Below are positions 15,038 to 32,016 of a DNA stretch of 50,710 nucleotides, piece after piece. Source of the DNA: a virus (lineage: Duplodnaviria > Caudoviricetes); IMG/VR virus record IMGVR_UViG_3300028610_000533, positions 1 to 50,710 of that record. One strand, written 5' to 3'. The position numbers and the translations under genes were made by a program. The notes beneath the pieces are model-generated. The model had not been told where the DNA came from, searched no databases, and was given only the letters and a program-made list of their open reading frames with translations. How positions within the stretch are numbered: the stretch's first letter is position 1; every line of letters begins with the position of its first letter.

Positions 15038-15547
15038 TTAGGTAGTGGTGCATCGCGGCTGTATTATATTTAGTCTCGCAAACTCACCAAAAGCCTCCGA
15101 CGCAGCTTTATTGTATGTACCGGCGGCTCGCATCGGGCAGATATGACATCCAAGGTTAAGGTTTTTACCATCTACGGTTATTTGTGCAACGAATTTACTT
15201 TGGTTACTTTTCCATGATACACCTTTGAATCCGGTCTTGTTGGTACTTCTTGTCTTTTGATTACGAATATTCTCTTTTGTGGAACATGCTCTTAAATTGT
15301 GCCTCTGATTATCGCACCCATTACCGTTTTTGTGGTCGCCTAATTCTCCGTCTGCTAATCCCATTATGATGCGGTGCATGTGCAATATAGCCTGCTTGCC
15401 GCCTACGACGAGTCTGCGTTCAGCATAGATAGTGCCATGTTTTTCGTGCGCTGACCATTTGTGCCGAGCGAGATATGTATAATCAGCATTGTCTACGAGA
15501 GCGAAAGTGTTTGGGTGTTTAGGTGTTGATATATCGATCAGCTTCAT
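15038..15547 (-). CDS. HNH endonuclease with AP2 DNA-binding domain
   Basis: MHRIIMG...DHKNGNGCDNQRHNLR (HNH) and GFKGVSW...FVAQITVDGK..NLG...AYNKAA-like..FGEFARLN (AP2); start at ATG 15547 with GGAG SD. Confidence 0.9.
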   Translation of the reverse strand: MKLIDISTPKHPNTFALVDNADYTYLARHKWSAHEKHGTIYAERRLVVGGKQAILHMHRIIMGLADGELGDHKNGNGCDNQRHNLRACSTKENIRNQKTRSTNKTGFKGVSWKSNQSKFVAQITVDGKNLNLGCHICPMRAAGTYNKAASEAFGEFARLNIIQPRCTTT

Positions 15548-15667
15548 GTTACTATCTCCTATAATAGTTAATCCTAATAATATTGGGGCAGCAGGACAGT
15601 TAGGATGCCTGTCTTTTCGGTCGCTAAACCTATCTGCCCCGCATTGTAACACATCACATACCATCTG

Positions 15668-17553: not shown

Positions 17554-17991
17554 TCAAATCCTTTCCGCCTCAATCTCGTCAACAAGCCATTTATGGTTAG
17601 GCCAGTTACCTGCATATTCTTTTCGGGCTTCCAGTGTCTGTCCCCGTAACCATTTGCCTACATTTTCCCTGTCTATGTCACGCTGCTTGTCCTGTCGCTT
17701 GCGCATTATCTCTTGCGGGTCTGTAATCGCTGCACCGAATTCCAGTGTCCAATATGAGTTATATACCCATGATTTGAAGTGTTTCCACGGGGGCACGAAA
17801 TCTGTAGCGTTCTTGCGGTGGGCTATCTGCTTCTTTATGGCTGGAACGAGCAGGGGGATGATTACCGAACGGTTGCCGTTAAATCGTTTCAGGCTCATAA
17901 AATATTCCCATTCGATAACCGGACCTCTCTTTGTGCCAGGGTAGATATATCTTGCTGCCTCGAAACGTATCTTCATATCAAGCTTGTCCAT
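17554..17991 (-). CDS. Putative replication-initiator C-terminal-like protein
   Basis: FE....YPG.K...FVPPWKHFKSWVYNSYW resembles the C-terminal domain of phage replisome organisers. Confidence 0.45.
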   Translation of the reverse strand: MDKLDMKIRFEAARYIYPGTKRGPVIEWEYFMSLKRFNGNRSVIIPLLVPAIKKQIAHRKNATDFVPPWKHFKSWVYNSYWTLEFGAAITDPQEIMRKRQDKQRDIDRENVGKWLRGQTLEARKEYAGNWPNHKWLVDEIEAERI

Positions 17992-18743
17992 TACTTCTCT
18001 CCAAATAAGGCATATTTGTCACGTTCGTCCTGTATCCGCTTCTCTGCTATCTTGCAGTAGTCGGGGCTTATCTCTATGCCTATGAAGTGACGGCCCATAC
18101 GGACAGCGGCAACACCTGTTGTGCCGGAACCACACGTAAAATCCAGAATAGTATCGCCCTCATTGGTGTATGTCTTGATTAGATATTTCATTAGGGCTAC
18201 CGGCTTTTGCGTGGGGTGCGCGGAGTTATTTTCTGATGCTATACTTATAAGGTTGAAGGGGTACTCCTCCCCGTTGTTACTTTTGCTTAAAGCCGTGTGT
18301 TTTCCGTATCCCTCAAACTCGCCGCTCCTGCTCACAAACCTCTCTCTCACCTGTTTCATCTGTGGGTTGTAGTTTGCCTGTTTACCGTAAAACACAACGA
18401 TATCTTCGGTAGTACGCAAAGGTTGTCTTTTAGCGTTCAAGAAACCAGTCTTACGGCTTTTCTCCCACACCCAACAATACGCAAACATTTTCATGTTAGA
18501 CGCTATTAGGGTTGTAGTGAATGGCTGCGAGGCCATCAAGACAATAGCACTGTCAGGTTTTGCTATGCGGCGCAACCTGTGCCACATTGGTTCAATAGGA
18601 ATCACATAATCCCATTTACATTGAGTTGTCCCATAAGGCGGGTCAGTCAGAACCAAATCCACACAGTTATCCGGCAATTGCTTCATAACCTCAAGGCAGT
18701 CCCCACAGATGACGGTATCAAGAATATCATTCACGTCAATCAT
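17991..18743 (-). CDS. DNA adenine/N4-cytosine methyltransferase (beta class)
   Basis: GDCLEVM, LTDPPY catalytic motif, HPTQKP and DFTCGSGTTG SAM-binding motif. Confidence 0.92.
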   Translation of the reverse strand: MIDVNDILDTVICGDCLEVMKQLPDNCVDLVLTDPPYGTTQCKWDYVIPIEPMWHRLRRIAKPDSAIVLMASQPFTTTLIASNMKMFAYCWVWEKSRKTGFLNAKRQPLRTTEDIVVFYGKQANYNPQMKQVRERFVSRSGEFEGYGKHTALSKSNNGEEYPFNLISIASENNSAHPTQKPVALMKYLIKTYTNEGDTILDFTCGSGTTGVAAVRMGRHFIGIEISPDYCKIAEKRIQDERDKYALFGEK

Positions 18744-18971: not shown

Positions 18972-19153
18972 GTCGGTATCCTCACTTGGAAATTTCTACC
19001 TTTTGCCAATTCCAATACCTTCTCATGCAGCTTCTCCGATATCTCAGGGGTTATCAGGAATCCGCAGTCGGACACCTCAAGCCCGATGTGTGTACCGTGG
19101 TTAGTTAGCCAGAGTTTATCCTCGTCTTCGTCTGTGAAAGTGTGTGTTTTCAT
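18968..19153 (-). CDS. Hypothetical protein
   Basis: ATGA-coupled to the ninG-like gene. Confidence 0.45.
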   Translation of the reverse strand: MKTHTFTDEDEDKLWLTNHGTHIGLEVSDCGFLITPEISEKLHEKVLELAKGRNFQVRIPT

Positions 19154-19605
19154 TTCAATTGCTCCCAAATCTCTCTTAAATCAGAAATGTACAACGTCAC
19201 GGTTTTGGCATTCTCGTGTATCAGTTCGTCAATTACCCCATCACCATAGGTTTTCTGCATGAATCGGGTATAAGCAATCAGTTCTCCCCCGTGGTACATA
19301 TTGCACTGCTCACACTGGGCGTGTACGTTCCTCAGATTGAACAGGGCGCTATGTCGTCTCCCTTGGATGAAATGCCCCGCTTGCAGGTCTTTCGTGCTCC
19401 CACAGGTCACACAGGCCCCGTCGCGGCGAATTACATAGTCATGTAAAGCCTCAAGACACCATTTGAGCCATTGCTTCTTCAGATAGGCTTTCAGCGGGGT
19501 TGCCAGTACGTCAAGGTTTTTGGCAATATCGCCAACATCTTGCCCTCGCCGACTCATCTTCCCAGCCATGATCTTAATGCTACGGGTTAGTTTCTTGTTT
19601 CTCAT
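19150..19605 (-). CDS. ninG: NinG/Rap-family recombination endonuclease
   Basis: YVIRRD..CVTCG....QAGHF.....LFNLRNVHAQCEQCN...GE...Y motif; start at ATG 19605 with GGAG SD. Confidence 0.85.
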   Translation of the reverse strand: MRNKKLTRSIKIMAGKMSRRGQDVGDIAKNLDVLATPLKAYLKKQWLKWCLEALHDYVIRRDGACVTCGSTKDLQAGHFIQGRRHSALFNLRNVHAQCEQCNMYHGGELIAYTRFMQKTYGDGVIDELIHENAKTVTLYISDLREIWEQLK

Positions 19606-19963
19606 TATTCTCCTTTGGCTTGAGCATGTCGGCGGCCTGCTGCATGGCCTCAAGCTGGTCTTTGTCAAGATTACCGCTGTTCCTGAACTCGTTAAATAGT
19701 CTCTCCAACGCCTCCCGCAGCCGTGTATTGTCGTCCAATAGGTCGGGGGTGTCTTGGCGGGCGTGGGCGATGAAGGTCCTGTCATTTTCAGGGAACGCCC
19801 CACCTTCCGGCTCAGCATAAACGCTTTGTGTACGACTGGTTTTTGCGATTAAGACCCGATGGCAAAATCCTTCCGGATCATCCTTAGGGCTTGTTCCGTC
19901 CAGATACCACGGCCCTTCCGTCGCCGCCTCGCACCGCTTCCTGATGGCGTCTAAGTCAATCAT
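19580..19963 (-). CDS. Ead/Ea22-like protein
   Basis: LDAIRKRCEAATEGPW...NDRTFIAHARQDTPDLL family motif. Confidence 0.7.
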   Translation of the reverse strand: MIDLDAIRKRCEAATEGPWYLDGTSPKDDPEGFCHRVLIAKTSRTQSVYAEPEGGAFPENDRTFIAHARQDTPDLLDDNTRLREALERLFNEFRNSGNLDKDQLEAMQQAADMLKPKENNEKQETNP

Positions 19964-20219
19964 GGTTTGCCTCCAGTCCTACAATCCAATAGCTATCAAC
20001 CCAATACTCCTTGCCCGTCTGTATACTTATCAAACGCACACGCAGGTAGTCAGAAGATACGTGAGTAATTCGCCCTGTGTAAATCGGGCCACTATCCACG
20101 CGCCGATACTTGATCTCGTCTCCAACGTAAAACAGATCAGCGAACTCGGCGGACAGTTTGGCTCTTACGTTGTCCATTCTTTTCCGCAAACTCTTATACG
20201 TTCTCGTATCTTTTCTCAT
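19956..20219 (-). CDS. Hypothetical protein (SH3-like beta C-terminus)
   Basis: ORF in the gene train. Confidence 0.5.
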   Translation of the reverse strand: MRKDTRTYKSLRKRMDNVRAKLSAEFADLFYVGDEIKYRRVDSGPIYTGRITHVSSDYLRVRLISIQTGKEYWVDSYWIVGLEANHD

Positions 20220-20270
20220 TCTTTTGCATCCTTACCATCTAATCGTTCGCCTCTGTATTTGCCTATATCT

Positions 20271-20510
20271 CTATTCATTGGGGGAGTCCTTAAAGGCTTT
20301 CCTGCACTCCGGGCAATAAGATTTTCGCCCACGAAACAACCAACCTTCTCGCACGGCCTCTTCTTTGTAAGCCTTTTTTGTTTCGTGGCCTGAATCGCCG
20401 CCATGAGCCTCACTGTATTCCATGCGGCCAGAAACACTATTGAGCCATGCACATGTGCAATTCTCACTGTTGCTGTCACAATACAAATAAACTTGTGCGA
20501 CAAGACCCAT
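20271..20510 (-). CDS. Small Zn-finger protein
   Basis: CDS..C...A.REGW.....YCPEC. Confidence 0.55.
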   Translation of the reverse strand: MGLVAQVYLYCDSNSENCTCAWLNSVSGRMEYSEAHGGDSGHETKKAYKEEAVREGWLFRGRKSYCPECRKAFKDSPNE

Positions 20511-20861
20511 CTAATCCACCTCCAAAATACTCGCAACCCGATAAGCCTCAGACCCGTGCCCGTCACAAACATAAGCATCCAGAGCAAAATCCGTGTGAGG
20601 TCCGTAATCGCCGTCTGCGTCGAGCTTGTTGCCGTCCTCGTCGCGGTAGTCCAGCTTATTCAGTATCTCTTGCATTGTCTCGATGGTCTTGTACTTGCCG
20701 TCGAAGTCGAGAAAGTAGATGGCCGGGGCGGTTTGATGGGATGGAATTGGAGGAGGAACCGCCGCCGACCTTGAAGTGCGAATCATCAATGACCCTGTAA
20801 TTACCGAGCCGCATACGAACGCTATTGTTATTGCTATGAATGCCTTATAGTTATCTTTCAT
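20511..20861 (-). CDS. Membrane-anchored protein with a peptidoglycan-binding-like motif
   Basis: N-terminal TM, Pro linker and MQEILNKLDY......LDADGDYGPHT, which matches the PG_binding_1 pattern. Confidence 0.6.
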   Translation of the reverse strand: MKDNYKAFIAITIAFVCGSVITGSLMIRTSRSAAVPPPIPSHQTAPAIYFLDFDGKYKTIETMQEILNKLDYRDEDGNKLDADGDYGPHTDFALDAYVCDGHGSEAYRVASILEVD

Positions 20862-20880
20862 TTTGGTTCTCCTGCAATAA

Positions 20881-21048
20881 TTAAGCAACTTGGAAGAATT
20901 CAAAGTTGCCGTAATCATCATCATAACTGAGGTCTTCGTCTTCGATAGAATCTAAAACCTGTTGCTTTGTTGGTTCTGTGTCCCACTCGCAATGAAAGAC
21001 ATAGACTTCTTCCAATTCTCTGTGAACTTTAATGCAATATAACGCCAT
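20881..21048 (-). CDS. Small acidic protein (55 aa, not in the ORF track)
   Basis: MALYCIKVHRELEEVYVFHCEWDTEPTKQQVLDSIEDEDLSYDDDYGNFEFFQVA, with an AGGA SD. Confidence 0.5.
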   Translation of the reverse strand: MALYCIKVHRELEEVYVFHCEWDTEPTKQQVLDSIEDEDLSYDDDYGNFEFFQVA

Positions 21049-21071
21049 CTTTCAATTCCTTTCCCAAATTA

Positions 21072-21271
21072 AGCGAGAAGCGGGCAGGATTGCGAATCCC
21101 ACTTGGACATTGTTGAGACAAGTCCCACAAACACAACTCACGGATGCGTGCCGTATACTACAATGGTAGTTCCATAGCGTGCCAGTTCCACCGTCAGCCG
21201 GAGCCAACGGGCCGCGTATCGGCTATTAACCCACTTCTTTGGCGTGTCGCACCACACCGCCGCTTCTCGCT
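21072..21271 (-). ncRNA. tRNA-like structured RNA with a large internal insertion
   Basis: 12-bp closing stem (21072-83 / 21260-71); D-like arm GCGGTGTGGTGCGACACGC; T-like arm GTGGGATTCGCAATCCTGC next to the 3' strand. Confidence 0.5.
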
Positions 21272-21399
21272 ATTTACTTTTCAAATAATGCCCGCTTAAA
21301 AGCTGCTGAGCACAATTCCACGGGCTTACTAAATTGTTATCGCTCTGGATTGACGGGATTCACTCCACGTTTCGCAGACCTTCGTTGGCTTTCGCCTAT

Positions 21400-21483
21400 T
21401 GCCTCCGACCGGAATCGAACCGGCACGCTACGTCTGGGTCTTTCGACTTACTCGCTTGCTCTACCAATATGAGCTACGGAGGA
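21400..21483 (-). tRNA. tRNA-like RNA / atypical tRNA with no assignable anticodon
   Basis: Acceptor stem CCTCCG/CGGAGG, D arm GCTC-ATATTGGTA-GAGC and T arm GCCGG-TTCGATT-CCGGT. The anticodon arm is replaced by a longer segment with a GTC-GAAA-GAC hairpin. Confidence 0.6.
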
Positions 21484-21604
21484 ACCTTTGCGGCATATTC
21501 CTGTCATTACTTGCCCTCGGCTACGGTTTAACACAGGACCGGAGCAAGTGCCGCATTTCCACAGCCACGAGGTAGATACCTGCTGATGGGCTGTGTAGTC
21601 AGGA

Positions 21605-21820
21605 GGGAACGGGCACCACGCTGTTACACGGCGACGGCATAGCTACATTATCCTTACCTGCCGAGACGTTGTTCACCCGTTCCCATTATTCTATTTCTAA
21701 AGAGCAACTAATCGCCGAGCCCGATGTGGATTTGCAAAACACTATTTAGCAGGTTCATCGTATTCCTCCGCAAATTTAACAATCATTTACAGTGGTACTC
21801 GTTATGCCCGGCGATTAGTT
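21605..21820 (-). ncRNA. Two further long-stem structured elements separated by a boxA-like motif
   Basis: Inverted repeats 21605-13/21676-84 (9 bp) and 21706-17/21809-20 (12 bp); TTGCTCTTTAGAAA on the - strand at 21694-21707. Confidence 0.4.
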
Positions 21821-21821
21821 T

Positions 21822-22304
21822 TCATTTAGCCTGACGTTTCTGTGTAGCCCACATCTGACTGAGCTTGCGGATGAATTCGTTAATAGAATCGGGTTCAATG
21901 ACAATCTTTTCTATGGCATCCTTAATAACCAAGCATCCCACTCCACTCCAATAGCCTGTATATTTGCCAAGATCAAACTCCGTCACCTCTTCCTGTAATG
22001 CCTTGAGGTCGTCGAAGATGTTGCCAAGGCGATATTTAGATGGAATATGCTCATCGGCCCGTCGTTGCCCGCCTTGATCGGCATAAAATGCCTTTGGGCT
22101 ACCAACTAAAGTAGATTGTTCTGCCACCACAAACCGCTCATTGGTTTCGTCTATTCCATAATCCCCATGCCGCAGCTTCGGATTCTCGGCTTCGGCTATC
22201 TGAGCATTAATCTTCCCTAATGCCTCGTCAAACTTACTGTCAATGCCGTTCATGGCGAGTCTGTGGTCACGGACAAGCTGCTCTCTTTGTTCTTTAAGGT
22301 TCAT
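21822..22304 (-). CDS. Hypothetical protein
   Basis: AGGAG SD; N-terminal coiled coil. Confidence 0.6.
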   Translation of the reverse strand: MNLKEQREQLVRDHRLAMNGIDSKFDEALGKINAQIAEAENPKLRHGDYGIDETNERFVVAEQSTLVGSPKAFYADQGGQRRADEHIPSKYRLGNIFDDLKALQEEVTEFDLGKYTGYWSGVGCLVIKDAIEKIVIEPDSINEFIRKLSQMWATQKRQAK

Positions 22305-22312
22305 GTTATCTC

Positions 22313-22639
22313 CTATGTGTGTGAGAAATATCTAAATACAGACTGGCATCCATTCAATTCATTGTAAATGCCCCGCAACTTCTCGATAGTGATCTTATAC
22401 ACACCCTCTGCTTCAAATTTTGCAATCAGGGCCTCATTGCATTCTCCCTCGGCAAGCTTATTGCAAATAGTGGCTGGCTCTCCCTTAGCACGCAACTTGA
22501 TTAGGGCAACCTGAAACTCGCGGGCATATCTACCATTTGCCCTCGCCATAGCAGTTACCAGCGACGGTAATGTATCCCGACACTTCTTGGCATCTTCAAT
22601 CTTACGATCAATTTGCCTTGCTCTATCAATTAGTTCCAT
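22313..22639 (-). CDS. Helical hypothetical protein (possible recombination accessory)
   Basis: All-helical; follows the SSB-like gene. Confidence 0.55.
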   Translation of the reverse strand: MELIDRARQIDRKIEDAKKCRDTLPSLVTAMARANGRYAREFQVALIKLRAKGEPATICNKLAEGECNEALIAKFEAEGVYKITIEKLRGIYNELNGCQSVFRYFSHT

Positions 22640-22652
22640 TGGTCACTCCATG

Positions 22653-23282
22653 CTAAAAAGGAATATCGTCGGCGGGCGGAGCATCAGGATGGTCGCCCAC
22701 GTAATCAGGATTGTCACCGAATACTTCCTGCCCCCTCGCCATTGCTTGATGTTCTTGCGATGCAAGGATGATTTTCTTGATGCCGTCTGAAATGTCTGGC
22801 GAAATATTGCCTTGATGCTCAGTGATAGAATATTTGAGAATCTTATGCTCCGGTGATTTCTTTGGCATACCCGTCATTAGCGGCGTCACAGTTGCAACCT
22901 TCGCCTTGCCTTTTTCGTCATGGATGATTTGCAGTTGGCAATTGGCGGTAAGGATATTGAACAGGTCGAATTCAAGCAATTCCTCTTTAGTGAAATTCCG
23001 ACCCCGCCATGTAATCAGGTCTTTGTATAAGTTCGCCTTTTCATTAAGTGACAGGGTATAGAACTTAGACTGAGTTGCAGGCATGTTGATTTGCTCTCCG
23101 TCTTTGTCGTATTCCATTCGCTCATTCGGCAATTCCCATATAACGAGAACTTGACTTTGCTCGTTGCCAAATTTCTCGTTATAGTGTGTGCCCAACTGAA
23201 TCACAGCATAACATACCGCATGATGTGTTCCAGCCGGAGCAGGCTTAAAATCACCTCCTGTTTGACTTACTGGTAGTCCCAT
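22653..23282 (-). CDS. Single-stranded DNA-binding-like protein
   Basis: GGDFKPAPAGTHHAVC...LGT N-terminus and the acidic SSB-type C-terminal tail ADDIPF. Confidence 0.7.
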   Translation of the reverse strand: MGLPVSQTGGDFKPAPAGTHHAVCYAVIQLGTHYNEKFGNEQSQVLVIWELPNERMEYDKDGEQINMPATQSKFYTLSLNEKANLYKDLITWRGRNFTKEELLEFDLFNILTANCQLQIIHDEKGKAKVATVTPLMTGMPKKSPEHKILKYSITEHQGNISPDISDGIKKIILASQEHQAMARGQEVFGDNPDYVGDHPDAPPADDIPF

Positions 23283-23523
23283 TCTGTTTCCCTTTCTTAA
23301 TAGGTTCCATTGCGTCCCATGTTTCATCCGGTTTACGTTCCGAATTAGTTAAGTCTATGCCGTCTGCTTTGGCAAGTTCAATCTGTTGCATTGGTTTGCG
23401 TACCATCGGCTAATTCCCAACTGACATCATCATCTAATAAATATGGGCATCTATGTGGCGTGCTGGGGCCATTACTTTCCAACTTGCACGGGTCATCTTT
23501 GCCACATTCGTCACATATCCATT

Positions 23524-23691
23524 TCATTCGTTCACCTCTACCATCTTCTTAACCAAATCCCATACTATTTCAACCTGACAATGCTCTAAGTGGGGTAACT
23601 GCTGTTCGATATACTCCTCTTGCTCCATTCGCTCGGCGGCTATGTTATTCCTGGCACTGTCTATTATGGATTGGATTGCAGTTTTAGTCAT
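23524..23691 (-). CDS. Hypothetical protein
   Basis: Short ORF in the gene train. Confidence 0.4.
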   Translation of the reverse strand: MTKTAIQSIIDSARNNIAAERMEQEEYIEQQLPHLEHCQVEIVWDLVKKMVEVNE

Positions 23692-23844
23692 ACTGTACAC
23701 CCGCAATGCTGAATTGTATAAACATGCCTGTCTTTTGGATTCGTTGGTTTTACGGTTAGTTGTCGCTGTCGCCACGTCACAAAATACCCACAAATAGGGC
23801 ACTCGTCATAGAATATCATATACCAATGTCGTTTATGTTTCATT

Positions 23845-24159
23845 TCAACCTCTCAATCTGTCATAAAACTTCGCCAGTGCAATCGGGGACGAATTATTTA
23901 GTGCTGATTCCAGTTCATCTTCGGTACAGTCAAAACACATATCATTCGGATATAATAGTACGCTCTCTTTTCCACACCCCCCACAGTCACCGCCCATTGT
24001 CCCTGCATCGTAAATTGCTTTCATCGCATCTTTCCGCTTTAGGGCTATAGTTGGCAGGGGAGCAATAGGTACTCTGCCGTCACGCCCCGCGAGGTAATCG
24101 TCATAGGCTTCTTCGCGGTCCCTGTCTGCTTCTGTTCGGGCTGTGGTGTATTGGTACAT
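23845..24159 (-). CDS. Hypothetical protein with CxxC pairs
   Basis: CGGCG...CFDC; GGAGG SD. Confidence 0.5.
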   Translation of the reverse strand: MYQYTTARTEADRDREEAYDDYLAGRDGRVPIAPLPTIALKRKDAMKAIYDAGTMGGDCGGCGKESVLLYPNDMCFDCTEDELESALNNSSPIALAKFYDRLRG

Positions 24160-24438
24160 TTAGCCTGCCTCCGGCATTGGTATTGTTGCCAATTCATCTT
24201 CTGGTATGAACAGTGAGTCCCACCGGCCTTCCGTTCCCATACACGCATTCCATCCACGGGACATATTCTTTTTGGTATATCTCATGCTTTCGTAACCCGT
24301 AACGCCACCGTCCACTATAGAAAACCATAACCCATCAAGGCCAGGGTATGGTTTTATTTCTACAGTGATATCTACGAACGTTTCCGCCTTTGTTGTGTGG
24401 TGTCCACGGATAGCTTTAATCTGGAACTGTGTTTTCAC
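24160..24438 (-). CDS. Hypothetical protein
   Basis: GGAGGT SD, GTG start. Confidence 0.55.
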   Translation of the reverse strand: MKTQFQIKAIRGHHTTKAETFVDITVEIKPYPGLDGLWFSIVDGGVTGYESMRYTKKNMSRGWNACMGTEGRWDSLFIPEDELATIPMPEAG

Positions 24439-24845
24439 GGTTTCACCTCCGCCAAAGCAAGAGCGGCCTTGGATTCATAGCACCATTGGCATTGAGTCGG
24501 CTCGCCGTGGTTGTCGTAATAACCACCAGAACCATCACAGCAAGGGCATTTCGCAGCCTTTAGCATTTCCACCAACGCATCATGGCTGTTATGCTCAAGC
24601 ACGATCCGGGCGGCAATTTCAGGAGTGGTACAACTTGCAATTGGGCCACTATTAGCAGTACAAATATAACAAGAGGTTTCGGTAAGTAATTTCCATTTCT
24701 CAGCCGTTTGGTGTTCAAGCCCGTTGCAATTGTTTACAATATCGCAAGGGATATTATGTTCTCCACAGATGGGTTGTGCGAGTAGTTTCGCGGCGGCGTC
24801 TGTGTGCCGACATAAATTGCAACGCTTACAAATCTCACGATCCAT
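24435..24845 (-). CDS. Cys-rich hypothetical protein
   Basis: Multiple CxxC motifs; HNSHDALVEML motif typical of small phage proteins. Confidence 0.5.
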   Translation of the reverse strand: MDREICKRCNLCRHTDAAAKLLAQPICGEHNIPCDIVNNCNGLEHQTAEKWKLLTETSCYICTANSGPIASCTTPEIAARIVLEHNSHDALVEMLKAAKCPCCDGSGGYYDNHGEPTQCQWCYESKAALALAEVKP

Positions 24846-25344
24846 TATTATCCCTCCACTTCTCGATTGCCTTTTGCATAGTCTCGTCTGATATATCGTC
24901 GGGGGTAGCGTCTTTGTCGTTGATCTTAATTGTTATCTCGATCTCCGGCTTGCGGATGGGGCGGGCGTATTTGAATGCGCTCCTTATACAAATAACAGGC
25001 CATGTGCTACCCGGAGCATAACCACGGAAAATATTCTTTTTCCAATCCTGCCCGGAACTATCCCGCACTTCTATCTCCTCGCCCCACTCGAAGGCATAGC
25101 CGAGAATCATTTCGTCAACAATGGTAAACCGCTCCTTGTTGGGCAACACTGACTTGTAAGCCTCCGTGCTATAGGGCTTTAGCTCAAGTGTCCTGTCTGT
25201 TCCTTGTAATGCGAATTCCATTTCAGGAGTAAAATGGATTATCTCTACCCCGCACACAATATGGCCCGTATCATCCAGCCCATACTTCTGCTCCATCAAT
25301 CCCCACGGCTTAATTACAACCTCGTCACCTTTTTTGTATTTCAT
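24835..25344 (-). CDS. Hypothetical protein
   Basis: MKYKKGDEV start; TAATG-coupled. Confidence 0.6.
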   Translation of the reverse strand: MKYKKGDEVVIKPWGLMEQKYGLDDTGHIVCGVEIIHFTPEMEFALQGTDRTLELKPYSTEAYKSVLPNKERFTIVDEMILGYAFEWGEEIEVRDSSGQDWKKNIFRGYAPGSTWPVICIRSAFKYARPIRKPEIEITIKINDKDATPDDISDETMQKAIEKWRDNNGS

Positions 25345-25547
25345 TATTCTATCCTCACAAAATTAGCTGCGTTTTCCATTTCTTCTATCTTTGCCGTACA
25401 GCAGTCCCAATCTCTCAGATACTCCCACGCGTCGTCAGCCCGCTTCTGGCAGTCTTCCGTGCTTTGGTGGGGGTCAAGCACTGCAATTGCTCTTTCCCAC
25501 CTTATACGGGCGTCTACGGCGTCTGCTTTTAGCTGGACGTAGGTCAT
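25344..25547 (-). CDS. Hypothetical protein
   Basis: Coupled ORF. Confidence 0.45.
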   Translation of the reverse strand: MTYVQLKADAVDARIRWERAIAVLDPHQSTEDCQKRADDAWEYLRDWDCCTAKIEEMENAANFVRIE

Positions 25548-25927
25548 TTACTCACCATTATCTTACGGGCCTTTTTCATGTTACGGATTAACTCTCGGAT
25601 TGCTTGGCGGACAGGGGCGATGGGGCCGCCGTCGATTAGCCCGTGTATTGCGGTTCGTGTATTACCCCATCCTTGTTTTGAGCAGTGTGTTTCACCATGA
25701 GCCCAAATGGGACATTTACCGCACTGCGTTACCCCGTGCCTATCCCTTCCAACATGGATGCAACAAGCGCAATAATGACACCAGATATAATCTATGCTCG
25801 TCCGTTCAAATTTCGCCCGCAATGCTTTCGCGGGGGCTTTGAGCATCTGTGTATACTTCTCAATACAGTTATCCAATGCCGCCAATGGTCCCTTTTTGGC
25901 AGCCCGCTCTACTTCTGTTTTTGTCAT
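25544..25927 (-). CDS. Cys-rich hypothetical protein
   Basis: CACC...CGKCPI...C cluster. Confidence 0.5.
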   Translation of the reverse strand: MTKTEVERAAKKGPLAALDNCIEKYTQMLKAPAKALRAKFERTSIDYIWCHYCACCIHVGRDRHGVTQCGKCPIWAHGETHCSKQGWGNTRTAIHGLIDGGPIAPVRQAIRELIRNMKKARKIMVSK

Positions 25928-26175
25928 CCACTTCACAGCACACCCCCAAACAAAGCCCATAGTATCAGGCCACCTACAAAGATAGCAGAAGCACATTCCA
26001 GAATGTCTTTTGTCTTACACATGATTATCTCCAAAAATTGGCCCAGACAGGAATCGGAACCTGTGCTGGGCCGTCTCCATGAGAGGAGGTGTGATGTTTG
26101 TGTTCCGATTCATTCCGATTACTCCGATTTAATTAGCTTACAATAGACCCTAACCTATTTTTGGGCAAAGTCAAA

Positions 26176-26466
26176 TTATTTCTTCCCGCCCAATGCTTTT
26201 TTGATCTGGGGATTGGTAGCCTCGATATACTTTTTCATCTCAGCCTCAGAAGCAATAGCCATAGCCATGCGGAACTCTACTGCCCCCCTGTGCATCATTG
26301 TCTGGCGGTTCTTTGCCACTGCCGACATCATCTTAACGGCAATCTTAACCTTGTCGCTATCCGCGTCGATCTGGTCGCTCAGGGCTTGCTGGATGATATC
26401 CATAGACCTGTTCTCAATTGCGCTCATTTTGTCCGCTTTTGCTTCTGTCATCGTTAAAGTGTTCAT
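26176..26466 (-). CDS. Small helical protein immediately downstream of the pentamer array (candidate accessory gene)
   Basis: GAAAGGA SD and ATG are embedded in the last array unit; 96-aa predicted all-helical protein. Confidence 0.65.
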   Translation of the reverse strand: MNTLTMTEAKADKMSAIENRSMDIIQQALSDQIDADSDKVKIAVKMMSAVAKNRQTMMHRGAVEFRMAMAIASEAEMKKYIEATNPQIKKALGGKK

Positions 26467-27177
26467 TTCATTTCCTTTCTCATATGGTCTGTTCATTTCG
26501 CCTTGCTTTCGTCTCGAATCAAATCGTGTCCGCTTCTCTCATCTACAATCAGCTTGTTTTCGCCTCAAGTCTTGTCCATTTCACTCAACTCAACTCAAAT
26601 TGCTTTCACTTCAACTCACATCTTTTTTCATCAAGCCAACTCATCGCTATTTGTTTTCAATTCAAGTCACATTTCATCTCTTCCATTCACATTGATTCGA
26701 TTCGCGTCCCGTTGTTCTCGCTTCAAATCTAATCCTCGCCTATCAAATCACTTCTCATGGCCTCACTTTGCTTTCAAGTCAAATCTCATCGTGTCCGTTC
26801 TCGTCCCATCATTTCCGCTCCACTTGATTTCAACTCTAATCTCATCCACTCGGCTTTATTCGGATTCTCTCCGTTCTCATTGTTTTCAACTCCAATCGCT
26901 TATCCTGCCTTCGCTTCTTGTGTCCTCTGTTCAGCTTGTTTTCAGTTCACATCCAATTCTCTCGGCTCTGGTCCAATCGACTCCGATCTCGTTGCTTTCA
27001 GATCTAAACAAATCATGTCTACTCAAATCGAGTGCCATCATATCAGCTTGCTTTCGTTTCTGCTCACGTCAATTCGCCTTCCATCGTTTCCATTCGTGTC
27101 CTATCACGTCTGATCATCTTGTTTTCAAATCTTCTCCCGTTCTCTCTTTACTGATCAGTTCAAATCACTTTGCTTTC
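26463..27177 (-). repeat. Array of 13 units, each a handle GAAA(A/G)CAA plus 8-13 NNN-GA pentamers (putative guide-RNA array, VIPR-like)
   Basis: The + strand motif TTGYTTTC (two copies have one mismatch) starts at 26503, 26554, 26600, 26651, 26712, 26768, 26824, 26880, 26936, 26992, 27048, 27119 and 27170. All spacings are 6+5n nt (46-71). By hand count 105 of 127 pentamers carry TC (GA on the - strand) in register. Confidence 0.9.
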
Positions 27178-27722
27178 CATTCTTTCACAACGAACCGCCC
27201 GAATGTAGGCCCGTACACGCCCAGCCCGCAACGCATCCCTGCTACATCGTACATGGCATGAATGATATCTTCGGCTACTGAGTCGTCTGTTACCTGAACT
27301 TTGAAGCTACAGGCCCACGGGGTATTCAGAACGGGACGCTCACACGTCGCCCTGCTGTTGCTGGCATTGATGAATGACCGGATATCAATGTCATCGTGCT
27401 TTGTCCGCTTTGGCGTAAAGTACACCTTGCCGTTATCACCCATAACCCACACACACGCCTTGCAGAAATTGAGATACTTCGTGCCCTTCTTTGACTCGAC
27501 CTCGGAACCGTAAATCTTCGCCGCACCCGGACGGAACCTGTTGCCGATCAAGAGCATTCGGAGATTGTCGGTCGGGATGTAGACCCCCTTTTTGTCAATC
27601 CACATCTTTTCGGGGATGGTCTGCTTCTTCTGTTTCTTTGTATCGCCGGGCTTCTCAGGCAGGGGGAATCTGCTGAACATGATCGGAACGATACCTTCAA
27701 TCTTACATTCTACTTCATACAT
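27165..27722 (-). CDS. Stand-alone Cas7/RAMP-like RNA-binding protein (Vipr-like)
   Basis: N-terminal strand VECKIEGIVPIMF, YIPTDNLRMLL (compare IPxSSxKG in Cas7-group RAMPs), RPVLNTPWACSF and the C-terminal Gly-rich loop AGMRCGLGVYGPTFGRF; AGGAG SD before ATG 27722; no other cas genes seen. Confidence 0.75.
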   Translation of the reverse strand: MYEVECKIEGIVPIMFSRFPLPEKPGDTKKQKKQTIPEKMWIDKKGVYIPTDNLRMLLIGNRFRPGAAKIYGSEVESKKGTKYLNFCKACVWVMGDNGKVYFTPKRTKHDDIDIRSFINASNSRATCERPVLNTPWACSFKVQVTDDSVAEDIIHAMYDVAGMRCGLGVYGPTFGRFVVKEWKAK

Positions 27723-27742
27723 GACACTACTCCTATAGATAG

Positions 27743-27819
27743 AACCCTCCCCCAAACGGAGAATCTGCTAAGATACTGAGGTGTCGGGGGAAGGTTAGAA
27801 TGTTTTTTGTATCTTAGCA
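27743..27819 (-). promoter_or_regulatory. Structured 5' leader of the Cas7-like gene (interleaved helices)
   Basis: TGCTAAGATAC/GTATCTTAGCA (27766-76 / 27809-19) interleaved with AACCCTCCCCC/GGGGGAAGGTT (27743-53 / 27786-96). Confidence 0.55.
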
Positions 27820-27826
27820 TGTCTAA

Positions 27827-27854
27827 AGTATAGCACAGAATCGGCCCTTGTCAA
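27827..27854 (-). promoter_or_regulatory. Sigma70-type promoter driving the Cas7-like gene, the array and the early operon
   Basis: TTGACA (27854-49), 16-nt spacer, TGc-TATACT (27832-27). Confidence 0.75.
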
Positions 27855-27873
27855 ATTCTTTTTTTATTTTAGC

Positions 27874-27906
27874 TTGACATTCGGGAAAAATTCGCTAAAG
27901 TATAGT
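27874..27906 (+). promoter_or_regulatory. Divergent sigma70-type promoter
   Basis: TTGACA at 27874-79 and TAAAGT at 27896-901. CTAAAGTATAG occurs at both 27823-33 and 27895-905, a possible shared operator. Confidence 0.55.
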
Positions 27907-28012
27907 ATCTGATTAAGAGTAATGCTCTTTGGTATTTATTTACGGAGGTGTCTCATGTGGCCATTTGATTGGTAGATTGAGAACTTAACCCAGTATTTAG
28001 GAATGACTTTAA

Positions 28013-28089
28013 TGAACCGTGACCAAGAAAAGTACGATAACCACCCAACAGGTGTCAACTTCACGGTTCAGCCTCTGGGTGGTTTTTTT
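28013..28089 (+). terminator. Attenuator-like leader: terminator with a competing helix
   Basis: TGAACCGTGA/TCACGGTTCA (28013-22 / 28061-70) interleaved with AACCACCCA/TGGGTGGTT (28039-47 / 28076-84), followed by a T run. Confidence 0.65.
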
Positions 28090-28101
28090 GTGGAGTAAAT
28101 T

Positions 28102-28272
28102 ATGAATATTCACGATGCGTATGAAATGGAAATGGAACGAATCGACGCTTGCGACGAATGGAGCGAAGAAGAAAAGCAAGAGGAGCGGATGGCCGTTGAG
28201 GAACAGGCAAGAGAAGCAGAATACGCAAGGCAGGCAGAGCATGAGAATGTAGAACGGCGATATGGATATTAA
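28102..28272 (+). CDS. Small very acidic protein (56 aa, not in the ORF track)
   Basis: GGAG SD; MNIHDAYEMEMERIDACDEWSEEEKQEERMAVEEQAREAEYARQAEHENVERRYGY. Confidence 0.6.
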   Translation: MNIHDAYEMEMERIDACDEWSEEEKQEERMAVEEQAREAEYARQAEHENVERRYGY

Positions 28273-28320
28273 TATGCCCACCTTTGATTATACGCCTGTC
28301 GGGGCTATTGTGAGGGCGGG

Positions 28321-28509
28321 ATGACCAAAGACAATGCTAAAGGCAAGGATGTTTGTGATAACTGCGAGGGCTTTGAATACGAAGAAACAACTGCGCAAGG
28401 CTACTGCAACGACCCCCAGAGCGACCATTTCAGGCATGTATTCATGTTCTTTCACACAGCCTGCGACCGGCTGCATAAAAGAGAACCAAATAAATTTGAA
28501 CCAAAGTGA
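28321..28509 (+). CDS. Small Cys/His Zn-binding protein
   Basis: CDNC...C...H...C. Confidence 0.5.
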   Translation: MTKDNAKGKDVCDNCEGFEYEETTAQGYCNDPQSDHFRHVFMFFHTACDRLHKREPNKFEPK

Positions 28510-28517
28510 GATTTTTC

Positions 28518-28546
28518 TTGACAAAACAATAAGGTGACTGTAGGAT
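28518..28546 (+). promoter_or_regulatory. Sigma70-type promoter
   Basis: TTGACA-17 nt-TAGGAT, followed by a structured leader and a terminator-like hairpin at ~28635-28676. Confidence 0.65.
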
Positions 28547-28689
28547 AACTTCATGCATAGTGAAGATAGACAATTGAGTAGTTACAAATCCCCGCGAGGC
28601 GTTTCGTCGTCTCAACTATGCAAGCGGGCCAATATAAGGGTTTCCCGCCTTCACAGGCCGGAGCCCTTACTTTTTGCGCTGAGGTGGGG

Positions 28690-28983
28690 ATGAGCAAGAC
28701 AGGATCAGGACCATCAGGAGGACAGGCAGGGTTTTTGGGCAAGCATGGGAAGTTTGTCACTTGCGACCCCGCAGAGCACGAATCATCCACAGACACCATA
28801 ATTATAGACCTGTTGAAGCATTACCTCAAGCAACTGTCGAAATGGGAGATAACTTTTCTGTCTGATATCTACAGCAACGCCCCATTATCGAGAAAACAGC
28901 ACATAAAAGTAAATAAGATCAAAAAACGAATAGAAAAACTGAACAGTCCGCCGGTGGATGTAGCGGCAGGGTCGAGTACCTGA
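28690..28983 (+). CDS. Hypothetical protein
   Basis: GAGGTG SD before ATG 28690; LSKWEITFLSDI...LSRKQ motif common in small phage proteins. Confidence 0.55.
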   Translation: MSKTGSGPSGGQAGFLGKHGKFVTCDPAEHESSTDTIIIDLLKHYLKQLSKWEITFLSDIYSNAPLSRKQHIKVNKIKKRIEKLNSPPVDVAAGSST

Positions 28984-29238
28984 CCGGACAGGCATGATAG
29001 ACGGCCTGAGAGCGTCTTGAGTACGAATACAGGGTGTTTTATTAAGTCCTATAGCGATTCCCCCAGTTATAGGCCATTTATGCGATTGCGAACTTATATC
29101 TCGATACGGCTGACCCGGCAAAGTACGTTATAAGAGGGGCGATACTGCATACGGACTTATACCGCAGATATCGAACTCCTGAGCATTCGTGCTTAGGGGT
29201 TCTCTGCGCCGTCCTAACCCGCAGACAGGAAACGAGCA

Positions 29239-29928
29239 ATGTACAACAGAAACGGAACAAGCTACTACCGCGTAAAAACTGGTAAGTGCAAGAAAAAGAA
29301 GTGCAGGAGTAAGGCTAAGTGGTGTATTGGTAAGGATTTGTGGTGTCAAAAACACGCGAATCGATGGTTCAAGAAAAACCCCGGCCCACCAAAGGAAAAC
29401 AAGTATCTGACTGTGAAGGACAAAAGGAGAACCTGCACAAAGCGAATTATGGCCTTGCGCAAAAAAGCTACTCCTGCCGAGTTGTGTTTTAAGAAGAAAC
29501 TGAGCAAATTCGATATTAAATTCAAGTTTCAGCGTGGGTTCATCAAGGGCAACGGTTACGCTATTGTAGATTTTTACATTCCACGGTACAAGTTGTGTAT
29601 TGAGATCGACGGCGGATACCATAACACGCCGGCACAGCGAAGCAAGGATAAATGGCGAGATAATTGGTTGCGAACCATGCGGCATGTGGAAGTTGTTCGA
29701 TTTACTAATGAGCAGGCTTTCGATATAAGCAACGAAGAATTAGGCCTCTTTCTTGACGAATGCGACCGTAATCACCAGATTCGGCTAAAGGCCACTCTTT
29801 TGACCCGCAAGTCAGAGCAGGCTGAAGCTCTCATGGTGAGGCTGACGGCGGCTGAATGTCGTGCTTATCGGCGGCGCATGCGCGACTTGAAAGAGCAGGC
29901 AAGAGTGGAAAAAGCATTGTTAAGTTAA
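29239..29928 (+). CDS. DUF559 / Vsr-like endonuclease with an N-terminal Cys cluster
   Basis: LRKKATPAE...FKFQ...IVDFY...LCIEIDGGYH...D..RD.WL...VVRFTNE. Confidence 0.85.
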   Translation: MYNRNGTSYYRVKTGKCKKKKCRSKAKWCIGKDLWCQKHANRWFKKNPGPPKENKYLTVKDKRRTCTKRIMALRKKATPAELCFKKKLSKFDIKFKFQRGFIKGNGYAIVDFYIPRYKLCIEIDGGYHNTPAQRSKDKWRDNWLRTMRHVEVVRFTNEQAFDISNEELGLFLDECDRNHQIRLKATLLTRKSEQAEALMVRLTAAECRAYRRRMRDLKEQARVEKALLS

Positions 29929-29963
29929 CAGAACATAACAAAAAGGCTTTAGGGTAAAGGGAA

Positions 29964-30200
29964 ATGAAAAAACCAAACGGATGGTATGGGTTTCACTGGG
30001 AGTGCGATTTGTATGAAAATTGGGGTAGCAATATGAGCCCCGAAAGCAAACATCATTACTGCAAGCGCAAAGACAGACAGGGCAAGGACAGGCCACGTTA
30101 TGATATGCTCCGTTGCCACTGGAACGTATGCCCAAAGCTCAAACAGCACATATACCCACCATCTCCGGACTCACCTTTGGCCGCAGGGGCTTGGGGATGA
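29964..30200 (+). CDS. Hypothetical Cys-containing protein
   Basis: ORF following the DUF559 gene. Confidence 0.4.
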   Translation: MKKPNGWYGFHWECDLYENWGSNMSPESKHHYCKRKDRQGKDRPRYDMLRCHWNVCPKLKQHIYPPSPDSPLAAGAWG

Positions 30201-30242
30201 GCAAGCTAATGTGATTGCAGATAATAAGGCAGAAAGGAAAGA

Positions 30243-30473
30243 ATGGACTACTGCGCAGAACTAACCAGGGACACTTATCATTCATTGTTGGAGGTTGTGG
30301 GTGTATCACCGGAGGCAGCTTTGACAGAGTTCGAGCAGAAGCTGAAAACCTTTAACTTTGTCGAGTCCCTGAACGAAACAGCAAGAGACATGAAGTTCTG
30401 GTTTGACGTGCATTTTCCCAACAAAGATAGTGTATATGAAGGAACACCCAGTAAGACTAACTTGAGGGGTTAG
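30243..30473 (+). CDS. Hypothetical protein
   Basis: AAGGA SD. Confidence 0.45.
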   Translation: MDYCAELTRDTYHSLLEVVGVSPEAALTEFEQKLKTFNFVESLNETARDMKFWFDVHFPNKDSVYEGTPSKTNLRG

Positions 30474-30768
30474 CTTTGGCAACTGCGGCTTCAATCGCTT
30501 CTATCCACCCGTCATCGTCGCCGTGTTCGACATTATCAATAGCTCTCTTGCAAGCCTCATATAAATCAGGGGCAGCGGCGATAAGGCGGGCGTTGGCTGT
30601 AGTATTATGTTCGTCTGGTTCGCCTGTTTTACCACAAGATATACCGCCAAAATGTCCATCTACTCTGCAAATTATATGCGATCCCGAATCTTTTACATAG
30701 ATATGGCGCATGCCCTCCATGTCTAATGGGTGATCGGACACCCACGGTCCTTTTGTAAACTTACTCAT
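30457..30768 (-). CDS. Conserved small phage protein
   Basis: MSKFTKGPW...ANARLIAAAPDLYEAC family motif; AAGGAG SD. Confidence 0.75.
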   Translation of the reverse strand: MSKFTKGPWVSDHPLDMEGMRHIYVKDSGSHIICRVDGHFGGISCGKTGEPDEHNTTANARLIAAAPDLYEACKRAIDNVEHGDDDGWIEAIEAAVAKANPSS

Positions 30769-30932
30769 AATATCTCCTTCAATTCCAATAAATGTACCCG
30801 ATCATAATCATCGTCAAGCAACATTTCAGCCTTCACCGCCGATTCTGCCTCAACCTCGACAGTCATCACCGCAGATGTCTCTGAGCAGCCATAGGCGCGC
30901 GATGTGAAGGTTATCAGGTATCGGTGCATGGT

Positions 30933-31241
30933 TTACCCCTTTAGGGCAGCTTCGATAAACTGGACAACTTCTCGGACATCAACACCGGCTGCAAACATGA
31001 AGGGCTTGCCAATGGTAGCTTGTGCGATAGGGTTATTTGCCGATTCTATGCCGCCCCCGAAAGTACGGAATTTAAGCCCCACAAGGCGAACAATGTCGTC
31101 GGTGCGGTTGCCGGACATAGTTGCTTGCGTGTAACATTGAGCAGAACAATATTTGTTAAGCCACGGAGTATCACCGTAAACTCGGCAGGCTTCACTGAAA
31201 TCATACTCTTTATCGCATTGTTGACAGGTTATGTTTTCCAT
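30933..31241 (-). CDS. Hypothetical protein with a Zn-ribbon (CxxC...YCSxxC)
   Basis: GGAG SD before ATG 31241. Confidence 0.55.
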   Translation of the reverse strand: MENITCQQCDKEYDFSEACRVYGDTPWLNKYCSAQCYTQATMSGNRTDDIVRLVGLKFRTFGGGIESANNPIAQATIGKPFMFAAGVDVREVVQFIEAALKG

Positions 31242-31309
31242 AATACATCTCCATAAATAGATACCCGCCCCAATCGCCAACGCAGCGAAAAGGGCAGGCA
31301 AAGGGGTTA

Positions 31310-31642
31310 TTATTGTACCGAAAAATGCTCTGAGTCCAGAACGCTGTTACAGACATATTTTGCGTGCATATCGTCACCGGCAATCGGGTCGGTATAGTTG
31401 CGAAACAAGCCCTTTATCATATCGTCACGAACCGGCACAGCGTCATCGGGTATTGTGTCGACCTTCTCAAACATCCGATAACAGCAATGGTCGAATGGGA
31501 ACAGCAACCCATCGCGGGCTTCAACTTTGCCGTAAAAGCTAAGACCGTCCGAGCATTGGCCGAGGTGCGTAGGCTGTAACTTGACAATATCGCCCGCGTC
31601 GATTAGCTGTCCTTTTGAGTCTGTAATAATTAACTGCAACAT
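31310..31642 (-). CDS. Hypothetical protein
   Basis: GGAGGT SD before ATG 31642. Confidence 0.55.
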   Translation of the reverse strand: MLQLIITDSKGQLIDAGDIVKLQPTHLGQCSDGLSFYGKVEARDGLLFPFDHCCYRMFEKVDTIPDDAVPVRDDMIKGLFRNYTDPIAGDDMHAKYVCNSVLDSEHFSVQ

Positions 31643-31643
31643 C

Positions 31644-31937
31644 TTACACCTCCCCATTCGATACACATGCACGCTTGAGTCCGTCCGAAACCGTGAAGAT
31701 AACCGGATAGCCGTTATCTCTATTGTAGCATATCGGCGGTGTGTCTTTTGGCGATTCAATCCAGCCCGCGCTTTCCATCGCCTCGAACGTTGACTGCTCA
31801 TACTGTGAGCCGTAGCCGTATTGAAACGGTGCGACACAAACAGCTTCATCCGAGTGTCGGATAATACGGACAGAATGATAAGTGTTGCCGTTGACCTTAT
31901 CAAACCACTTTTTAACGACTGCTGTGTACTTCTTCAT
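31644..31937 (-). CDS. Conserved hypothetical phage protein
   Basis: KWFDKVNGNTYHS...PFQYGYGSQYEQ motif. Confidence 0.7.
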   Translation of the reverse strand: MKKYTAVVKKWFDKVNGNTYHSVRIIRHSDEAVCVAPFQYGYGSQYEQSTFEAMESAGWIESPKDTPPICYNRDNGYPVIFTVSDGLKRACVSNGEV

Positions 31938-32016
31938 TTCGTAACCCCTTTTTAAAAATATATTGATATTACACGCCCGTTAGTTTATAATTGGGCGTTC
32001 TTTTGTAAGTTAAGAA

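Follow-up and report, generated by a model that had tools for sequence, protein, structure and literature searches.

A phage-borne array of short repeats raises the question of whether a palindrome that appears in one of its units only when the fixed bases are deleted is a trace of what that unit recognises or a coincidence and, underlying this, what kind of array carries it. The array lies in a 50.7-kb virus record, hereafter the window, by which we mean the whole stretch of DNA analysed; the record encodes a terminase, a portal-like adaptor, and capsid and tail proteins. We consider it probable that the region is a phage-borne VIPR guide-RNA array and that the 8-nt palindrome in its unit 9 is most likely coincidental. 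The VIPR reading is based on protein homology and fold, the anatomy of the array, the conservation of a three-part module and the hypervariability of the guides. In the available text of the preprints describing them (10.64898/2026.04.26.720920, 10.64898/2026.04.26.720927), VIPR systems, which are related to CRISPR and silence DNA under RNA guidance, combine Vipr, vrRNA and vap, with Escherichia phage SUSP1 as the type II exemplar, and their phage-borne Cas7-like protein polymerises on an RNA of 5-nt repeats. A VIPR locus with a GA/NNN repeat would thus be a further member of the family published in 2026 in these preprints.

The Vipr homolog, its array and the conserved module

The module and the promoter-like site ahead of it comprise the following features:

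27827..27854, minus strand: promoter-like site about 100 nt ahead of the start of vipr, with TTGACA and TATACT 16 nt apart and a TG
27165..27722, minus strand: vipr gene, encoding a 185-aa single-RRM RAMP (Cas7-like) protein, assigned by homology and an AF2 model
26497..27185, minus strand: vrRNA-type array in which 12 complete units follow a leader of 2 pentamers and precede a last segment that is unterminated
26176..26496, minus strand: gene for a 106-aa protein modelled as all-helical, a candidate vap-like vipr accessory, conserved after the array

The vipr product, which is also 185 aa long in its protein-database form, matched SUSP1 Vipr (36pp_D) in a phmmer search against PDB sequences (E 8.3e-4), and a profile of 40 homologs matched the same protein at E 6.3e-7, with an alignment that spans the thumb Arg and the G-loop. 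Its AF2 model (pLDDT 89.9) has a Cas7 fold, and the best Foldseek matches of that model are type III Cas7 subunits (E 1.4e-6). Pfam assigned the protein to no family and PHROG to one of unknown function. The G-loop reads GLGVYGPTFGRF. D177, W178 and R179 of SUSP1, named in the available text of the VIPR cryo-EM preprint as the readers of G1, G2 and Y3 of GGY, align to V, Y and G in the HMMER alignment; all 40 homologs keep the G-loop Gly and nearly all keep the Tyr, and SUSP1 thumb R138 aligns to an Arg that is invariant in the homologs. The replacement of the GGY-reader residues is consistent with a changed fixed motif. The promoter-like site upstream of vipr agrees with the consensus at 11 of 12 positions; the region holds no more such sites than shuffled sequence, and the site is a lead only.

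The array begins within the gene, its first hexamer falling inside the last codons of vipr, and its last segment, which is unterminated, extends into the ribosome-binding site of the next gene. Each complete unit consists of 8–13 NNNGA pentamers closed by a hexamer AARCAA, which is AAGCAA or AAACAA in the window apart from one AATCAA and one GAACAA. This hexamer is the sole separator between units and moves the pentamer register by one base. GA ends 98 of the 119 window pentamers, and the variable positions carry 0.04–0.06 bit. Tandem Repeats Finder did not detect the array because the fixed bases are only two in five. A search of the whole window with Rfam at gathering thresholds returned no CRISPR repeat family, its sole match being an unrelated int-alpA RNA motif (RF02996, 15572-15640, minus strand, 46.1 bits, E 1.8e-6) that lies within or at the start of a 208-aa ORF (15038..15664). 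The 21 pentamers of the window that lack GA include three in unit 5 (26886-26935) that end in CA or TA; from this loss of GA, some window guides may be decaying.

Relatives of the locus were recovered by an alignment-based scan of viral contigs; a single-protein scan with Vipr recovered none. The resulting comparison set contains 92 related loci, a few of which are one contig present in two collections. Their arrays were parsed with a dynamic-programming parser, and 408 distinct complete units were kept after leaders, last unterminated segments, units containing irregular tokens and those shorter than 6 pentamers had been left out. Of the related loci, 83 include the whole end of vipr together with 150 nt or more of downstream sequence. 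An NNNGA array starts within 80 nt of vipr in 80 of these; in the other three the best array lies upstream (two loci) or starts about 110 nt downstream (one locus). The best-scoring NNNGA array is directly upstream of vipr in loci L018 (906-1201) and L078 (567-817).

Across the 408 family units the fixed positions are G in 93.6% and A in 96.2% of pentamers, and the three variable positions carry 0.09, 0.01 and 0.03 bit. The base after GA is A in 40%, T in 23%, G in 22% and C in 16% of cases, with no pyrimidine restriction. The final 2–3 pentamers of the units are partly conserved, and the hexamer differs by clade (AAGCAA, ACGCAA, ACTCAA, GCACAA and others). No unit of the window recurs among the units of the related loci, the best identity at variable bases being 57%, and the turnover of guides is complete even where Vipr is 84–90% identical. 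In 25 near-identical unit pairs we counted 29, 32 and 23 substitutions at the successive variable positions, as against 9 and 2 at the G and the A; the first variable base is therefore no freer than the other two. The initial annotation had described the region as an information array punctuated by GA. The fixed GA is borne out, and by analogy with published VIPR systems the variable bases are very likely guide information.

The third part of the module is the 106-aa gene, for which the ATG at residue 11 is the probable true start. A tblastn search found its product in 57 of the 92 related loci, and the gene directly follows the array in 50 of the 65 loci that have room for it. It is the only other conserved neighbour: ten other flanking ORFs occur in none of the 92 loci. 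The AF2 model is helical and of low confidence (pLDDT 67.8); Pfam, PHROG and PADLOC gave no family for the protein, and it has no recognisable DNA-binding or nuclease domain. Downstream of this gene, a Tandem Repeats Finder row (26104-26129) corresponds to three direct copies of ATCGGA on the minus strand, spaced by 9–10 nt. An inverted fourth copy forms the loop of a 12–13 bp GC-rich hairpin (26040-26072), which is followed on the minus strand by AATTTTT; the hairpin region (26040-26135) may be an operon terminator with a protein-binding motif.

In its wider setting the window had no megablast match to cultured phages over positions 20000-32000, and a scan with a 419-aa ORF recovered no relatives. 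The early region of the phage encodes an N6/N4 DNA methylase (17991-18743, minus strand; PF01555, E 2e-36) and a NinG-like protein (19150-19818, minus strand; PF05766, E 4.4e-15).

For the window system we infer transcription, processing, DNA targeting and a reading rule along the following lines. A minus-strand operon of vipr, the array and the 106-aa gene would be transcribed, and the array would yield about 12 short guides, either by being cut or in the way it is read. Each pentamer would be bound by one Vipr protomer, which would grip its fixed GA and expose its variable bases for gapped pairing with the dsDNA of competing mobile elements, leading to the silencing of those elements.

The decoded palindrome of unit 9 against chance

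The palindrome belongs to one unit of the array:

26657..26711, minus strand: unit 9, the palindrome-bearing guide unit of 11 pentamers

On the plus strand this unit reads as 11 copies of TCNNN and on the minus strand, where the flanking genes also lie, as NNNGA; two of the 11 pentamers end in AA rather than GA, and the final two, CTTGA and ATTGA, belong to the unit's 3' end, which is partly conserved. When GA is removed and the 11 triplets are joined, the longest perfect inverted repeat of the resulting 33-mer has 8-nt arms, at decoded positions 5–12 and 18–25 of the minus strand, and a 5-nt spacer, whereas no inverted repeat in the raw 55-mer exceeds 5 nt. The initial annotation, which had reported an 8-bp inverted repeat with a 5-nt spacer in the decoded unit that is missing from the raw DNA, was therefore exact on this point, and its count of 13 units agrees with our parse of 12 complete units and one unterminated last segment. 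RNA folding of unit 9 gave a z of +1.10, with 175 of 200 shuffles folding as well or better.

The symmetry of the palindrome is such that first positions pair with first positions and second with third, the former accounting for three of its eight pairs. If the first variable base is ignored, five pairs are left, a number that unit 2 of the window also has and that 604 of 2000 shuffles reach.

Shuffling the 12 complete units of the window under three schemes, with 2000 trials each, produced an arm of at least 8 nt in some unit in 1.8% of trials when triplets were shuffled, in 1.65% when triplets were pooled and in 1.25% when bases were shuffled. Within the window alone the palindrome is thus nominally unusual (P about 0.013–0.018), close to the chance of a few percent that had been estimated from the sequence, and this is before allowing for other patterns that might have been noticed. 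In the family set of 408 distinct complete units, arms of at least 8 nt numbered 2 against 0.89 expected (a count reached by 40 of 200 shuffles), arms of at least 7 nt numbered 7 against 4.09 (25 of 200) and arms of at least 6 nt numbered 24 against 19.3 (30 of 200). The counts lie slightly over expectation at every threshold and are significant at none. Since they are near expectation, the decoded guides of the family are not enriched in palindromes, and about one 8-nt case is expected per 400 or so units.

The palindrome of unit 9 is a real pattern that is best explained by chance, and it is most likely not a signature of the target of its guide. It lends no support to a repressor operator, being within chance across the family and ceasing to be a signal if the first variable base is not read.

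Target searches, neighbouring bases and alternative explanations

We searched for targets with 407 guides under nine decoding rules, namely contiguous triplets, each choice of two variable bases out of three at period 3, and periods 2, 4 and 5. The DNA scanned amounted to about 0.8 Mb: 382 kb of related loci and the window with arrays masked, 88 kb around relatives of the terminase, and 371 kb of eight whole virus records, one of which is a complete relative without vipr. No targets were found for the 407 guides under the nine rules in this DNA, in which real guides score like shuffled ones. The best single hit, 18 of 21 at period 4, belongs to a T-rich guide of 7 pentamers and was judged to be chance. 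The decoded unit 9 matched at best 21 of 33 bases contiguously in the roughly 0.8 Mb scanned, and its arm-spacer-arm core at best 16 of 21. The suggestion that all three variable positions are informative and together spell a natural DNA sequence accordingly fared unevenly: the three positions are indeed equally low in compositional information, and no natural sequence in the DNA searched matched unit 9 beyond 21 of 33.

Among the related records, G005 (record of L098; L100-L102) is a complete virus record of 45 kb that carries direct terminal repeats and lacks a vipr homolog. Its terminase is 77% identical to that of the window, and it holds no guide matches above shuffles. It offers a natural comparison for what the vipr module adds, or may be a competitor.

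Neighbouring bases offer a further view of how the triplets are read. In 399 guides of at least 8 pentamers, base pairs across the deleted GA scored 32 nats (z 5.3) under natural adjacent-base statistics, as against 13 nats at distances 2 and 3. The across-GA score is positive at every distance from 1 to 7; among next-nearest pairs distance 2 fits better than distance 3, and there is no fit whatever for pairs whose predicted separation is 3. The combination of T before GA and A after it shows a strong deficit (two clade groups give z -3.1 and -5.7); TA and AT are equally depleted across GA, and TT is enriched (z 2.9 and 4.5), in every clade. The signal looks like local A/T clustering rather than an adjacent-base bias specific to TA, and its lean toward a contiguous reading is confounded. 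In a test that began from 407 guides, the joined triplets also gave strong frame-specific stop-codon and coding-likelihood signals; the stop-codon deficits arise from the same T|A deficit. That the guides target coding DNA, as these signals might suggest, was rejected because TGA is not depleted, and avoidance of hexamer mimics was rejected because the T|A deficit is equal in clades whose hexamer does not start with AA. We treat the T|A deficit across GA as a neighbour bias that neither hexamer mimicry nor a clean coding signal accounts for.

These results bear differently on the explanations that compete with coincidence. Were the palindrome real information, the three variable bases would be read or copied together and unit 9 would be aimed at a palindromic site that a competing element carries, be it an operator, a terminator or a REP-like element; we regard this reading as unlikely. 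The nominal within-window P value favours it, as does the pairing of first with first and second with third bases, which is the one register compatible with a period-3 target. It also accords with the unrestricted first variable base, with the alignment of the pyrimidine-clamping Arg of SUSP1 to an invariant Gly, with the spread of substitutions over all three variable positions in near-identical units and with the higher score of pairs across GA. Moreover, vrRNAs aimed at palindromic REP elements are described in the available text of the VIPR preprints, and a palindromic target is therefore not absurd. Set against this are the want of any family-wide excess of inverted repeats, the failure of decoded unit 9 to find a match in the DNA scanned, hits under the contiguous rule that are no commoner than in shuffles, and the nature of the across-GA signal, which amounts to TA and AT depletion with TT enrichment and extends over distances 1–7. 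Slightly less likely still is the specific version in which a GA/NNN VIPR holds two bases per step, the other three pair contiguously, and unit 9 is directed at a regulatory palindrome in a rival element; if true, such contiguous three-base reading would give a single protein family two recognition codes.

A very improbable account, in our judgement, is that the inverted repeat is a by-product of local duplication or slippage of pentamers, repeated triplets finding complementary partners more easily. Unit 9 does contain two adjacent pentamers with the same triplet, on which one arm is built; adjacent duplicates are common, as with GTTGA GTTGA in unit 11 of the window and several cases in loci L002 and L003, and like bases are enriched across GA, as the TT values show. 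However, no such duplicated pair of pentamers, in the same register, makes up the second arm, and triplet shuffles, which keep duplicate triplets, yield such arms in only 1.8% of trials. Least credible of all is an array without targeting by its variable bases, whether as DNA bound by protein, in the manner of iterons or a centromere, or as an RNA that acts as a sponge for some GA-binding protein. In its favour, no target was found in the DNA scanned, and a period of 5 nt, repeated about 11 times in each unit, is reminiscent of the sites bound by TRAP in Bacillus. Yet the array is strictly linked to a Vipr homolog (the 80 of 83 loci above), its fixed GA is strand-specific and lies on the gene strand, its variable bases turn over wholly between loci with Vipr of 84–90% identity, which a binding array or sponge would not predict, and neither a TRAP-like nor a partition protein turned up next to it. 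A VIPR guide array with a coincidental palindrome remains our preferred explanation.

Comparison with known systems

The closest structural matches of the window protein are the Cas7 filaments of type III systems (Csm3/Cmr4; Foldseek E 1e-6 to 1e-4). The proposed arrangement also resembles the Cas7 backbone of class 1 systems in having one protomer per fixed guide step and a thumb that interrupts pairing, but differs in its 5-nt step, compared with 6, and in a sequence identity of 9–16%. The locus further differs from class 1 CRISPR in having no repeat-spacer array, no Cas6, Cas5, Cas10 or Cas11 and no cas1-cas2; in place of the repeats of 23–50 nt and the multi-subunit effector by which class 1 CRISPR-Cas is recognised, its only constant element between units is the 6-nt hexamer. 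TRAP sites consist of about 11 (G/U)AG triplets spaced by 2–3 nt and go with a TRAP protein, whereas the window has a fixed dinucleotide GA, a free preceding base and a Cas7-like neighbour. Readings as TRAP-like sites, a CsrA sponge, box C/D or TIGR arrays, or a partition site were dropped on the strength of the Vipr homology.

The likeness to SUSP1-type VIPR is more extensive. Both have a small phage-borne single-RRM RAMP protein, that of the window being a homolog of SUSP1 Vipr, and an adjoining non-coding tract built in 5-nt steps of fixed and hypervariable bases, with 8–13 steps per guide in the window compared with 9–16 in the published systems. Both have one small conserved partner gene and no nearby CRISPR repeats or adaptation genes, and in both the guide bases change between close relatives and the fixed bases stay. 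The window system is borne by a virus, and VIPR systems are mostly carried by viruses or proviruses. The differences lie in the repeat, which is NNNGA (GA and three free bases) in the window and canonically YNNGG (GGY and NN) in VIPR; in the G-loop, where V, Y and G stand in place of the D, W and R that read GGY in SUSP1; in the 3' region, the window having a 6-nt RNNCAA hexamer as separator and no long structured tail or pseudoknot; and in the partner, which in the window is helical, 106 aa long and assigned to no known family. In the available text of the VIPR cryo-EM preprint, R179 of SUSP1 clamps the pyrimidine; the corresponding residue of the window family is an invariant Gly.

An NNNGA repeat still allows membership in VIPR, since the papers accept other consensus repeats. 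Beyond GGY/NN, the published text available lists NNNGG, YNNNG, NNNNG and 'staggered' arrays (10.64898/2026.04.26.720920) as well as GAC/NN, CAC/NN, WGT/NN and TGH/NN (10.64898/2026.10.21.760802). The window repeat is like NNNGG in its two fixed and three variable bases and like GAC/NN in placing GA first, and differs from the latter in that the third base of the window family is free and not C. Its abutting units with a one-base register shift fit the description of staggered arrays in the corresponding legend. A full-text search of three VIPR preprints and a language-model preprint found no mention of NNNGA; the clade may be in the supplementary tables, which, according to the available text of the VIPR preprints, cover 667 systems and 21 non-canonical clusters.

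As far as the available text of the VIPR preprints goes, Vipr sequesters GGY and presents NN to dsDNA, every third target base being skipped, and this gapped code, with two bases read and one skipped, has been worked out for GGY/NN repeats only. Together with about 90 related loci from metagenomes, the window phage makes up a well-populated GA/NNN clade. Owing to its GA motif, its free third base and the replacement of its GGY-clamp residues, this clade constitutes a natural test of how the G-loop sets the code, and equally of whether the code can shift from two-of-three to three-of-three. The palindrome itself adds little to this, and the interest of the locus lies mainly in the natural variant it provides for testing how the code is set.
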